64,000 nucleotides of DNA, taken from positions 10,354,001 to 10,418,000 of the forward strand of contig OX597821.1 in NCBI GenBank assembly GCA_951406725.2, given 5' to 3'. The notes beneath the pieces were generated by a model. That model was not told the DNA's origin. It searched no databases and saw only the letters and a program-made list of their open reading frames with translations. Numbering within the stretch: position 1 is the first letter of the stretch; every line of letters starts with the position of its first letter. The stretch comes from Octopus vulgaris (Eukaryota). The position numbers and the translations under genes are program-made. Positions 2,574 through 34,623 of the stretch are shown here, piece by piece.

Positions 2574-3167
2574 GAAAAACAAGTCAAAAATAGAAAATGC
2601 TAAGATAATTTTATAGTGAATCTTTCAGTACCGGTTTCGGTCATTTTGAGACCTTTTCAACTGTAACGATTAAATAATTAAATTTAGAAAAATTAGAAGA
2701 AAAGTTTTTTTAAAAGAATATTTCTATAGTAGTGTTCAGATATAAGTAGCATTCTGCCTTTCTCTGACTCCCTTGTTTGCACTTGTGTGTTCGAGGTCGT
2801 TTTGAGTTCTTGGTAGGGTAGGTGAGAATAAGGAGGCTGATGTGGAGAGGGGGTGGGGAAATCTGGGAATGCCTTGATGGTCGTATTTTGAAGGGTCAGT
2901 GGCTGACAGTAGTCGCAGTTCAATTCAGGAATCGTTTATGGAATTTGCGTAGGCGTTATACTGAAAGACATTAGTGACAAGGTTAAGGGGTGGAAGGTGG
3001 AGAAGTAGAAGAAGAAGAAGAAGAAGATGACGATGTTGATGATGATGATGAAGAAGAAGAAGAAGAAGAAGAAGAAGGAGAAGGAGAAGATGATGGTGAT
3101 GATGGTGGTGATGATGATGACGACGATGATGATGATAATGATGATGATGAAGAAGAAGAAGAAGAAG
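2574..3167 (-). mobile_element. PLE 3'-terminal fragment (same family as the element starting at 19010)
   Basis: Colinear with about 19010-19620, including the GAA/GAT tract; abuts (TA)n. Confidence 0.9.
2626..2663 (-). ncRNA. Minimal type I hammerhead-like motif, U3-A8 core
   Basis: Minus strand: cag TTGAAAA ggtc-tcaaaat-gacc GAAA CCGG TA ctg. Confidence 0.75.
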
Positions 3168-4286
3168 TATGTATGTATGTGTGTGTGTGTGTCTGTGTGT
3201 GTGTATCAGGGCAAGCATATTAAAAGACTCATTAAATTAAACCCGGTTTGGAACCACTGTTAGGGACCAGTGTGAAAAGATTGGGAACCACTTGATTAAA
3301 ACCTTTAGGCAATACATAACTCCCAAATTTTTCAATAACTTTCTCTCCTCAATTATCTTTAGTATTTCATAGAGTATTTTTTCAAAAGATCAGGAATTTA
3401 TGAATTACTTTCGTAGTGTGTAATGGTGTTTTGTTTATAATTGCTTGCTGGCGTTTTCTTTTTGTTTTTTTTTTAACATTATTTCAATTGAAATACGAAA
3501 ACGATGAAATTTCTCACAATATTACGTTTAGTAAAGTCGATCATATGTAAGTGAAAAACATCTTGTATGTATTTTCTCTTCATTACAGCTACATAAATAT
3601 TGATTACTGACATTGAGCCAGACAATTATATTTCGACACCCTAGAACTCCTATAATCCTTCCTTTACGAAAATTAGTTGTCAGTATTAAAGGTATTAAAA
3701 GGGAAAATATACTTCCGTTTTGTAATTGATGATATATCATTGACATTATAATGTGGGACCTATATAAAATATTTCAACAGAATCTAAACAAAATCAATAG
3801 AATGTGTTCTTAGTTGTAAATAGTCTACGTGAATTCATAAAGAAAAGAAATGTTTTCTCATAGTCTTAATTTACTTCGCATTAGGTTGGCTTTATTTCCG
3901 GTTTGTAGTAAATATCCAAAAGATGTAAACACTTTTCAAAGTAAATGATATTTTTTCAAAGCTATATATGCCAGCTAAGTTTAATCGTGTTGCGGCGATA
4001 TTTTCCTTCCTTTTTCGTGTCTGGCTTACTGTGATTGAATTTGTGTATGGAGATATATCCCAAACATGGTCATTCTGATTTTTCTTAGCTGCTAAATTGT
4101 ATAATTCTTTGAAAGAAATTTATATAATAGTTAAGTTTAAGATCAGAGTTAAAATACAAAAAAAATACGTTACATTTTTAGAAAGAAATCTACATTATAA
4201 AGTGCCTGATACTTGTTTCAAGTGACAAGTCGGTAGATGTTTTAGAGTGATGATTTTTGTTGCTTTCATTATTTCAGGTAAATAAG

Positions 4287-4900
4287 ACGGCAATCTTGCA
4301 GAATCATTAGCAACGGGCCAAAATAGCGGCACGTGACATGTCTTTAAATTTACAGTTCAGAAGATTCCTGTGCTTGATATAATCGACTATCTCCTGTGCC
4401 TATTGTAGAAGAGATGATTTGAGGTAAAATAGCAATTTTGAAATGAAGGAAACTTTTCTTCTCTGTATTACTATATTCTTTCTCATGCTCCATGTCTTTC
4501 TGGAGCGGAGATAAGGAGAATTATTCGGTCCACTGAATTTAAAACACCAAAGACCTGTCGTATGTTCCGACGCATTCCTATATTTCAATCAGATTTCGTT
4601 ACGTGATGTAACGATTTAGTTCTTACGGTAGACGGTCCTTATTGTAGCCATTGCAATTAAACCGACTGAAAATCAAAGCTATTCTAACCATGCTGAACTC
4701 ATCATTCGACATTACGAGTTTGGGAATTGCTGAGAGATTCTATAAATACTTATATTTTGAGGACAACTTGTTATTTGAATAGGTAGCACTAGCTTTCGTT
4801 GTTGTGCTTTACCGAGTGGAGGACATAGAATCAGTTGCGAAAAACAACGGGTACTTTTCATGTATTCCCATTTTATATTCTGGAGGCAGTACAACACAGA
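4287..4900. mobile_element. Highly decayed SINE remnants
   Basis: gacggcaatcttgcagaatcattagca resembles a tRNA-derived SINE head; the rest is weak similarity only. Confidence 0.3.
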
Positions 4901-6196
4901 GTAATTTTACATAGTCTCCAGTACTGGTCAAAGGGAAATAAAACATTATACTCAAAATGATGACAGACCTGGATGGTTTCAACTGAATGGACTCTGTTTA
5001 AGGTACCTAATGTAGCAAGCATTATAATTAAAATAGGGGACAAAACACGCCAAAAATAGTGTACGATAGATTGTGAAGTCAGACCACAACACAATGTGAG
5101 AATGATAGACCACAATGTACCGAGCCAATATTCTGACACTTTGGTTTATCACCACCTAAGACTAGCATATTGTTTTTTGCATCATAAACTAAGGACATGA
5201 ACACAGAACTCGAATTTCCTGTAAAAAAAACTATCGTTTCTAAAATGATGTTAGCCCTATTTTATCTCACAGTGAAAAAAACAGAGCAGTCGAATGCTCA
5301 TGATAAATGAACGCACCACGCATAATGCAAATTCACATGCGAACTATTTATTATTGTCCGATCACACCATCACTTCATTCCAAAATCCCCCGCACTACTA
5401 TACATACATTCGCTTTTTGTAATTCTATGGTTCTCAGCAAATGATTACAAAAATTAAAAAAAAAAGAAGCTGAAACCTGGTGATAATAATTATCTAAAAG
5501 ATATGTATTTCTATGGAAACGGATATGTTGATGGCTAGTTGTATATGCCTGCTAGAATATCGCCGCAGGAAACTTTTCAACACGGGAGTGAAGTAAAATA
5601 AATGTTGAGATTAACTCATGAGTAAATGTCATTGTACTTTAAGCGGATGAACGTCTATGAAAGTTTATACATCACACATGAGTGCATAGCATGCTTATTG
5701 AACTACTTATGTCGTTCAGCTACTGCTCAAATATGTGCATATATTATTAAGTCATTTCCTTTGACGAGGAAAAAGTGACAGTTGACATTTCTGTTGAAAA
5801 CCTAACATCAGCATGGAAATATCTTGCTCTAATAAACATATATTCGTTAATGGGAATACACCACTTAAGTGTCCAGTTCTTAATTAAGCCATTATGGCGT
5901 CAGGTTTTCAGATTCTATTTACTATTTAAGTAGTTTCAGCTGACGACGTATAACGGCAACTTTAATTTCAGAAATCAGTATTTAGTTGCACTTACAAATC
6001 TATTTTCAACATATTCAATATTGTGTGTGTCTGACTACAAATATATTACATATATCTATGCATATATCTATGTACGTATGTATCTGCATGAATCTTTCAC
6101 TTACCACACACACACATATATATATTTTTTAAATTCAAATTACGATGAACGTAATAAAACAAACGAAGTTTGCTTTAGAGGCATATATGTATATAT

Positions 6197-6487
6197 ATAT
6201 GGCAAGAAGAAAATGGAGGGGATATAGAAGTAGTATACATCAACTGTTAGACATTACATTATGTCTATTTATTTTAAGACATTTATGAGAATATATACAT
6301 ATGTAAACACTGTGTATTACATACATACGGATCAGAAATTATTCGTTTTCTATCCTATCAATAACTGGTAGTCTCTATTTAATACACAGTCCTTAATATG
6401 TTTTAAAATAAATAAATAGACATAATATGATGTCTAACAGTTGATGTATAAAATTTCTATATCTCCTCCATTTTCTTTTGCCGTATA
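6197..6487. mobile_element. Foldback/MITE-like element with about 85-bp imperfect terminal inverted repeats
   Basis: ggcaagaagaaaatggaggggatataga...catcaactgttagaca pairs with tgtctaacagttgatg...tctatatctcctccattttcttttgcc; second copy of the core at 8467-8650. Confidence 0.75.
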
Positions 6488-6662
6488 AATTATGTGTAAA
6501 GCACTTTTTATGCTCAATAGTGAAATTAACCACGCAACAACCACTATTTTGGTATTAATAATTGGGTAGAATTCCAGCAGTATATTTGATACTTACTACA
6601 CTTCAGTCGGTTTGATTCACAAACCTCTAACTCTCACTCAGTTATATATATATATATATATA

Positions 6663-33270: not shown

Positions 33271-33779
33271 GGACTATAAATATATGTTTGTGGATGTGAG
33301 TGTGTGTGTGCGCGCGAGTGTGTGTGTATATACGTCTGTGTGTGTGTGTGTGTGTGTGTGTGTGCATATTTGATTTCAAGTATATGTTATGATCTTGATA
33401 CTGTCGAAAATCGGAGTATCTACAAAGCAACTCTTCGCACGAAGCCGTGTCTGTCTACACTGTTTGCTAACAATCTCCCGGAAGACTGAAATTTGACAAG
33501 TGTAAGAAATTCGAGAACATCATCGGTAAATCCAACGTTTGTATGTTTTGAAGAGCATTATGATCTCGAAATACAATGACAAAGAACAAGTATATCACAA
33601 ATTTAATTACTTCTAAAATTGTTTCAGTTATACTCCGCTTTGGGCGCTATTGCACGCAAATATTCATGTGGAAATTCAAGTAATATTTACATTTTATCAG
33701 CCTTACATCAAATAATTTACCCTCGCATTGTGCAACGGCTAAGCGTTTGATGTAGTACTACTCTAAATTAAATCAGCTC

Positions 33780-33960
33780 AAATACTAGTTCCATATTTTG
33801 GTACAAGGCTGGGAACCTCGGGGGACAAGATAAGTTGATTCCATTGCCATTTTTGTCCAAATAGTATCATTTGTGCTGCCCGAAATATTGAAAGGCAATC
33901 TCGACCTCGACGGAATGAGAACTTAGTACGTAAAACAATTCTAACAGTTCGTTTCGTTTC
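33780..33960. mobile_element. Decayed SINE fragment
   Basis: gaaaggcaatctcgacctcgacggaatgagaact resembles a common octopus SINE segment. Confidence 0.35.
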
Positions 33961-34109
33961 TCACCACAAATATTACATAGCATTTTCCATGAAATATGTG
34001 CAATGGCATTAAGAACTTCGTGTTATCGAAACAATTGTAAATTATAATTAAAGATGCTCGAAACCCATTTATATATATATATATATATATATGTATATAT
34101 ACATATATA

Positions 34110-34458
34110 TAGACGCCACTAACGTGTAAGGGTTATAGTCAGCACCAGTATTGCTAGTAATAAGATTCAGGACAACACTTAGCCACGAGAAAGTACTTAT
34201 CCTATGATTGACAAGGTAGGCAAGCTCCCTATAGCGTCCGGGATGTAGCTGTATACACACACATGTATATATATGTGTGTGTGTGTGTGTGTGTGTGTGT
34301 GTGACATCGCAACTCATTTGAAAAGCGGAGCGAACAGGAGCAACGTGAAATAAAGTGTCTTGCTCAAGAACACAACACGCTGCTCGGTACAGAAATCAGA
34401 CTCATACATAACCTCACGATCGTATGATCGACGCTGTAACTACTGATACACGCGCCTT
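34110..34458 (-). mobile_element. Decayed tRNA-derived SINE
   Basis: Minus strand: aggcgcgtg...gtgttgtgttcttgagcaagacactttatttcacgttgctcc. Confidence 0.55.
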
Positions 34459-34582
34459 TACGTTTATATATATATATATATATATATAAGTAAGGAAAAA
34501 TTTTTTTAAAAATGCAGAATGCTCAAATGAAAGAAAATTTTAATAAAATGAGAAAATGATAAAATATATAAATATATATATT

Positions 34583-34623
34583 TATTCAACCGGTTTCCGT
34601 CAATGTATGACTTGTCAAGAATA
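34583..34623 (-). ncRNA. Minimal hammerhead-like motif, U3-A8 core
   Basis: Minus strand: tattc TTGACAA gtca-tacat-tgac g GAAA CCGG TT gaata. Confidence 0.72.

Follow-up and report, generated by a model that had tools for sequence, protein, structure and literature searches.

Hammerhead motifs in two families of Penelope-like elements

The 64-kb stretch of DNA analysed here in its full length (the window), from a 2.8-Gb animal genome rich in microsatellites, holds three pieces of two families of Penelope-like elements (PLEs), designated A and B. Each piece carries a motif laid out like a minimal type I hammerhead ribozyme, with U3-A8 in the core where C3-G8 is canonical. An earlier note on this DNA, made from the sequence alone, had placed the three motifs correctly: all lie on the minus strand, the one that codes for the neighbouring PLE open reading frame (ORF), and the predicted cut sites are set in from the (TA)n junction by about 55 nt in A and about 98 nt in B, in agreement with the 50-100 nt it gave.

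Copy 1, of family A (2626..2663, minus strand; U3 at 2660, A8 at 2655, A17 at 2629), reads CAG / UUGAAAA / GGUC-7-GACC / GAA / ACCGGU / A / CUG, a full match that includes the palindrome ACCGGU, with a predicted cut on the minus strand between 2629 and 2628. The 186-bp stretch surrounding it recurs identically at many places genome-wide. It lies in a solo, 5'-truncated family A fragment of about 600 bp (2574..3167, minus strand), a piece of pseudo-long terminal repeat (pseudo-LTR) that ends at a (TA)n tract (2459-2573) and contains neither an ORF nor a partner motif. Copy 2, also of family A (19063..19100, minus strand; U3 at 19097, A8 at 19092), has AGCGGU in place of ACCGGU, which costs it the palindrome and the 15.2-16.2 pair and weakens the predicted self-duplex to -2.1 kcal/mol, against -8.3 kcal/mol; this change was seen in none of 60 family A loci inspected. 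Its surroundings are the left arm of a family A insertion (19010..21065, minus strand), comprising the 3' part of the ORF (19857-21098, minus strand), which encodes a reverse transcriptase (RT) thumb, a zinc linker and GIY-YIG, and the pseudo-LTR as far as (TA)n. An inverted right arm with RT (21067..22897, plus strand) is truncated by a self-inverted repeat of 214 bp (22896-23109), which interrupts the family A ORF.

Copy 3, of family B (34583..34623, minus strand; U3 at 34618, A8 at 34613), reads UAUUC / UUGACAA / GUCA-5-UGAC / GGAA / ACCGGU / U / GAAUA and is one nucleotide over the layout given in the earlier note: either the GAAA box holds an extra nucleotide, or N17 is missing behind an 8-nt palindrome. 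A cut is predicted between 34588 and 34587. The 5'-truncated element around it (34486..38207, minus strand) is 98.9% identical to a full 4.6-kb unit, and one frameshift divides its RT-GIY-YIG ORF into parts of 541 aa (35897-37522) and 267 aa (35260-36063), both on the minus strand. The proposed layout is found as described in copy 1, whereas copy 2 has lost the palindrome and copy 3 has a non-canonical GAAA/N17 junction. Solo or truncated, the window copies are probably dead and likely do nothing.

A descriptor tolerant of Y3/R8, as the earlier note had suggested, and of an additional GAAA-box nucleotide picks out copies 1 and 3 as its two matches in the window; 100 of 100 dinucleotide shuffles yield nothing. 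The window gives no CUGANGA match, so the claim that CUGANGA-only searches miss such motifs was right, and the first descriptor of Cervera and De la Pena (2014; PMC4209133) likewise missed the U3-A8 variant. As a reminder for annotation, a CUGANGA search of the genome misses at least about 2,900 motifs, 1,928 from family A and 970 from the B clade. Patterns run in reverse as controls gave 0 to 3 matches, against 1,928 for A, 147 for the young B subfamily that includes copy 3, and 970 for the B clade. An Rfam scan of the window returned no match at the gathering score for hammerhead families, and monomer folding energies were unremarkable against shuffles (z from -1.45 to +0.27).

Head-to-tail units measure 4,613-4,617 bp in B and 4,386 bp in A (one copy), each with one motif, which lies in the pseudo-LTR in the same orientation as the ORF. 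It follows one ORF, and U3 precedes the ATG of the next by 206 nt (B) or 155 nt (A). Insertions of both families abut (TA)n and frequently carry an inverted arm, with a tail of 30-45 nt on one side; terminal junctions, inverted arm and tail together form the PLE signature (bioRxiv 2021.04.23.441226; PMC11167929). The proteins have an RT with DKG and YxDD, a CX2-5CxxC linker and, at the C-terminus, GIY-YIG. The Pfam model RVT_1 exceeds its cut-off in both families, and GIY-YIG, with a cut-off of 22.6 bits, scores 22.9 for B and 20.9 for A. Judged by these features, A and B fit endonuclease-bearing (EN+) PLEs of Neptune-like type, with Nematis as the alternative, the 120 homologues listed having carried no named reference of either. 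They do not match non-LTR retrozymes, whose tandem units are short and non-coding, as the units of A and B are coding and 4.4-4.6 kb long. The palindrome of stem III, ACCGGU in A and AACCGGUU in B, is broken only in window copy 2, and the anatomy of the families bears out what the earlier note had stated of PLE pseudo-LTRs, namely type I hammerheads with palindromic stem III.

Full B units (L181-L185; for example L183:1041-2180 and 2555-4810) also have a 5' ORF, starting MPPKNK, that is not in the RT-EN frame and is divided from the RT-EN ORF by a C-rich 114-bp repeat region (37645-37856 in the window). This may be either a genuine two-ORF layout or the product of copy decay.

The 3-8 pair within families, across PLEs and in retrozymes

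With positions 3 and 8 left free, the family A pattern has 1,928 exact matches in the genome, and 99 of 100 among the matches listed are U3-A8. For the young B subfamily, with 147 genome matches, the count is 100 of 100 among the matches listed; the junction reads GAAAACCGG in 99 of these and GGAAACCGG in the window copy alone, the second G of copy 3 being a private change. Searches for single changes, run genome-wide over all families, found 46 C3.A8 and 21 U3.G8 matches, of which four and two, respectively, carry the exact stem II of family A. In contigs from runs labelled as the same or as other organisms, positions 3 and 8 are free of alternative letters (four runs for A, at 1%; three covered runs for B, at 5%). 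These results support U3-A8 as the family consensus of A and of B rather than as copy decay; single, uncompensated changes, which in a family consensus would by the earlier note have counted against its proposal, are rare.

Family A offers almost no stem variation in which covariation could be sought. In the B clade, which has 970 genome matches to UUGANAA...CGAAAACCGGUU, 12 chosen representatives were compared and stem covariation is present: three of the four pairs of stem II change on both sides, with 97.9% of cells paired, against 29-41% overall in slid registers. The outer pair of stem I swaps between U-A and A-U, in counts that are partly distorted by rows of a third local family, B'', standing out of register. 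G5, A6, A9 and G12 are invariant in the 12 motifs, an invariance partly imposed by the search pattern, and N7, the loops and the stems vary.

Beyond this genome, 91 PLE loci drawn from collections of metagenomes and genomes were scanned with positions 3 and 8 unconstrained, giving 39 motif rows in 33 of the loci, 34 in sense and five in antisense orientation. All 34 sense rows are Watson-Crick at 3-8. Once repeats are merged they reduce to 25 distinct motifs, with C-G in 19, U-A in four, G-C in one and A-U in one. Thirty shuffles gave 0.3 matches per strand, with four of nine paired at 3-8. On an RT tree of 29 rows (the 25 distinct motif loci, L287, A, B and a further family, K), U3-A8 requires five changes, at least four of them forced by strong branches. 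The conclusion that the 3-8 pair has been kept Watson-Crick across PLE lineages, presumably under constraint, holds on this comparison.

The G3-C8 motif (L277:117-160) and the A3-U8 motif (L284:1969-2005) are single PLE-linked motifs with good stems, in one copy each. Our literature search found no natural G3-C8 or A3-U8 hammerhead, the only mention being of an engineered G3-C8 in the accessible text of PMC3884650. The collections also contain PLE RT genes in records of bacterial metagenome-assembled genomes or symbionts (L320-L330; P0037, P0051, P0062, P0067), which are most likely mis-binned animal host DNA.

The same genome contains a tandem retrozyme family of 357-360 bp (L094-L100, L106-L120, L122-L164 and L229-L235; for example G000:C4:80857199-80857948) that comprises C3-G8, U3-A8 and C3.A8 subfamilies, 24 of the 46 C3.A8 matches being one identical motif. 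A tree was built from 37 of 40 extracted units (two truncated units and one chimeric unit were dropped), over 220 columns with positions 3 and 8 masked. U3-A8 is basal, and C3 units form a nested clade (97.6/99) within which C3-G8 (90.1/91) is sister to C3.A8; mean diversities are 0.068, 0.024 and 0.008. This topology suggests the order U3-A8, then C3.A8, then C3-G8, on a root given by one distant unit and assuming no recombination. Further hammerhead families with an ACCGGU palindrome occur at L121-L148, L216-L224, L197 and L093-L118, at least four more of them U3-A8, along with an old C3-G8 family that has a long, bulged stem II. For the other motif families an RT was found within 1.5 kb at only one of 90 loci, and most of them are therefore off the RT tree.

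The window holds several other repeats. A minimal hammerhead-like motif with C3-G8 and U at position 6 (42190-42235, plus strand) belongs to a very common repeat that ends at (TA)n. At 42787-46000 (plus strand) lies the 3' part of a third PLE family of the window, K, with a long CA-rich tract and, near 45965-46000, a U4C minimal hammerhead; this family has 13,295 first-look candidates, 1,008-aa ORFs, a 6.2-kb unit and 29-30% identity to A and B. A fragment of an apurinic-endonuclease/RT long interspersed nuclear element, labelled from its translation, is tandemly duplicated at 46118-51106 (minus strand; 2,494 bp, 97%). The self-inverted repeats at 22896-23109, 6193-6490 and 31375-31852 are possibly miniature inverted-repeat transposable elements.

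Predicted self-cleavage, the B-clade junction and the probable descent of U3-A8

We consider it probable that the window motifs are dead copies of a type I hammerhead residing in the pseudo-LTR of sister Neptune-like families, whose ancestor exchanged C3-G8 for U3-A8, and which is predicted to cleave slowly, as a dimer. A read-through transcript of head-to-tail units would carry two or more motifs; the palindromes of two motifs would pair and form stem III (predicted -8.3 and -10.1 kcal/mol), residue 8 would be kept in place by U3-A8 as it otherwise is by C3-G8, and slow self-cleavage after N17 could then yield unit-length RNA, by analogy with PLE hammerheads in the literature. Only weak cutting is expected. 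In family A, U3 could pair with A17, an analogue of the inhibitory C3-G17 pairing described as a trapped state of the hammerhead (PMC3884650), which would make A slower still. In young B, the alternatives would be a 6-nt palindrome together with a GAAA box enlarged by an A, or no cutting at all. Dimer pair probabilities failed to tell young from old B, giving the cut-site U as paired at 0.88 in young B and 0.86 in old B, and the method misfolded a canonical C3-G8 control (C3 paired at 0.87); they carry no weight on activity.

Several observations weigh against this reading. The canonical junction is present in only 246 of the 970 B-clade copies. The C3.A8 mismatch subfamily of the retrozymes has spread, with its 24 identical motifs among 46 matches, so that a 3-8 pair is not strictly needed for spread. 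The core of family A is invariant at 1% or above in four runs, but variation in its flanks is confined to about 20 of 245 sites (P about 0.24, our estimate), and this invariance is not significant and is no proof of constraint. Two of the five antisense rows of the PLE scan are unpaired at 3-8 and three are paired; we treat these rows as chance matches. Finally, L324, a U3-A8 locus, groups with C3-G8 outgroups (91/89), a placement that makes an older origin of U3-A8 plus reversion possible.

The strongest competing explanation is that the fold was kept and cutting was dispensable, the motif being a leftover, or else a signal for protein binding or dimerisation, and young A and B transposing without self-cleavage. 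The B-clade junctions count in its favour. Older B subfamilies have a canonical type I junction with a U3-A8 core, and in this canonical form (246 copies) the 8-nt palindrome AACCGGUU is followed by H17 and a 5-bp stem I. In the two youngest subfamilies a UUU run is short by one U, the cut-site U; they form a single derived clade (100/100 in a DNA tree of the flanks, 19 rows) and make up, by our count, about 60 of 100 among the listed matches of the 970, and two more copies of their loop type keep the U. In the young motif either N17 is absent, or U17 follows a palindrome of 6 nt and the GAAA box has gained an A; the unaltered succession of GAAA, stem III, UH and stem I is found in A and older B but not in young B. 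B'' (60-65% amino-acid identity) is also without the U, so that at the root of the clade either its gain or its loss may have come first. L127 was considered as a canonical ancestor of B and rejected, since only four copies match its shorter form and, in L192 and L203, the extra A is present in the other arm of the same insertion.

Dispensable cutting would likewise accommodate the U3/A17 of family A, the amplified C3.A8 retrozymes, the U4C or A6U changes in other PLE motifs of the genome, the spread of Naiads, in which no hammerhead was detected in the accessible account of them (bioRxiv 2021.04.23.441226), and the low in vitro activity published for minimal hammerheads (PMC4209133). We nevertheless think it unlikely: G5, A6, A9 and G12 stay invariant across the 12 B-clade motifs, if partly through the search, the 3-8 pair is paired throughout the 25 lineages, and a GAAA-box insertion, U13a, occurs naturally in hammerheads and is predicted as likely tolerated (PMC3088659).

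For the youngest B subfamilies, which number hundreds of copies, window copy 3 included, we offer a narrower proposal, tentatively and at rather less than even chances. They would have lost the cut-site nucleotide, such that either a U3-A8 hammerhead with an extra GAAA-box A still cuts, or an autonomous PLE lineage gave up self-cleavage and yet spread, with a compensatory walk in the retrozymes preserved alongside. The need for cleavage by PLE hammerheads has been called unclear (Craig et al., bioRxiv 2021.04.23.441226). With a single cut-site U as the difference between them, older and younger B subfamilies supply matched natural constructs on this question, as does the retrozyme family with its three states U3-A8, C3.A8 and C3-G8; the presence of intact-junction older B subfamilies in the same genome as young B makes it directly testable.

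As for descent, the slow dimeric ribozyme proposed above would have a single origin of U3-A8 in the two families; a separate change from C3-G8 in A and in B is very improbable. The RTs of A and B are 58% identical across 432 aa and sisters on the RT tree (100/96), and together with B'' they form one clade (100/99) that is U3-A8 throughout, C3-G8 not having been met in any member. Outside it, L243 and L248 are the closest relatives for which a motif was called; both are C3-G8, and looser, uncontrolled matches in L241, L242, L244, L246, L320 and L321 read CUGANGA. Several other motif families of the genome are also U3-A8. Separate changes would suit the unlike stems I and II of A and B, the repeated origin of U3-A8 elsewhere (the five changes on the RT tree) and the presence of both states in one retrozyme family of the genome. 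On this topology U3-A8 was likely inherited once, from the common ancestor of A and B. Being sisters, the two families are not independent evidence, and the use that the earlier note made of them as independent double changes is not supported; its inference of selection for the fold finds support in PLEs outside the window, where the 3-8 pairing is kept.

That the motifs are chance matches, or C3-G8 copies decayed by AT bias, has a negligible probability, the numbers of copies having refuted it. Speaking for it are the AT-rich genome, the nature of the two changes (each a GC-to-AT transition) and ordinary monomer folding, but shuffles (0/100) and reversed patterns (0 to 3) yield next to nothing, both changes are present in near-identical young copies, and single changes are rare.

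Comparison with known hammerheads and PLEs

The U3-A8 core is not novel. Cervera and De la Pena (2014) reported about 1,300 U3-A8 motifs in Cercyon PLEs of Schistosoma mansoni and printed a UUGAAAA core in a supplement alignment (PMC4209133), and Perreault et al. (2011) described U3-A8 covariation in several natural hammerheads, citing earlier in vitro activity (PMC3088659). With PLE cases in print since 2014, the U3-A8 headline matters little, and the interest of the present motifs lies mainly in two series, that of the B junctions and that of the retrozymes. Neither series was found in print in the literature searched, whose coverage was partial, and the same search found no paper on the present motifs among PLE or retrozyme hammerheads of cephalopods or octopus. 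Lunse, Weinberg and Breaker are said to have described PLE-associated dimer-cleaving variants, and may already list the present core or junction variants.

As EN+ PLEs, A and B resemble Neptune elements (bioRxiv 2021.04.23.441226 = PMC8557442) in GIY-YIG, DKG, the CX2-5CxxC linker and pseudo-LTRs, and also in the inverted 5' arm, the one-sided tail and (TA)n targets. Unlike the Neptune elements in the accessible description, four full B units have an out-of-frame 5' ORF, of 282-380 aa.

Among hammerheads, those of Cercyon share with A and B the type I form, the location in a pseudo-LTR, U3-A8, G10.1-C11.1, a palindromic stem III and the occurrence of solo and inverted copies (PMC4209133). In contrast to Cercyon, A and B have a stem II of 4-5 bp, no extra nucleotide behind A9, and a palindrome of 6 or 8 nt rather than 4 nt, and they stand closer to the fly, rotifer, shrimp and mosquito variants of the same paper, which have a small palindromic helix III. 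Loss of the cut-site U in a spreading subfamily, seen in B, was not met in the accessible portions of that paper. The natural variants of Perreault et al. are not PLEs, but have both U3-A8 and a GAAA-box insertion (U13a) in common with A and B; compared with them, young B would combine U3-A8 and an inserted A without a stable stem III (PMC3088659). The PLE-associated variants covered in a review (PMC6765202) have, like A and B, a short palindromic stem III, and the dimer cleavage that is published for those variants is what we predict for the hammerheads described here.

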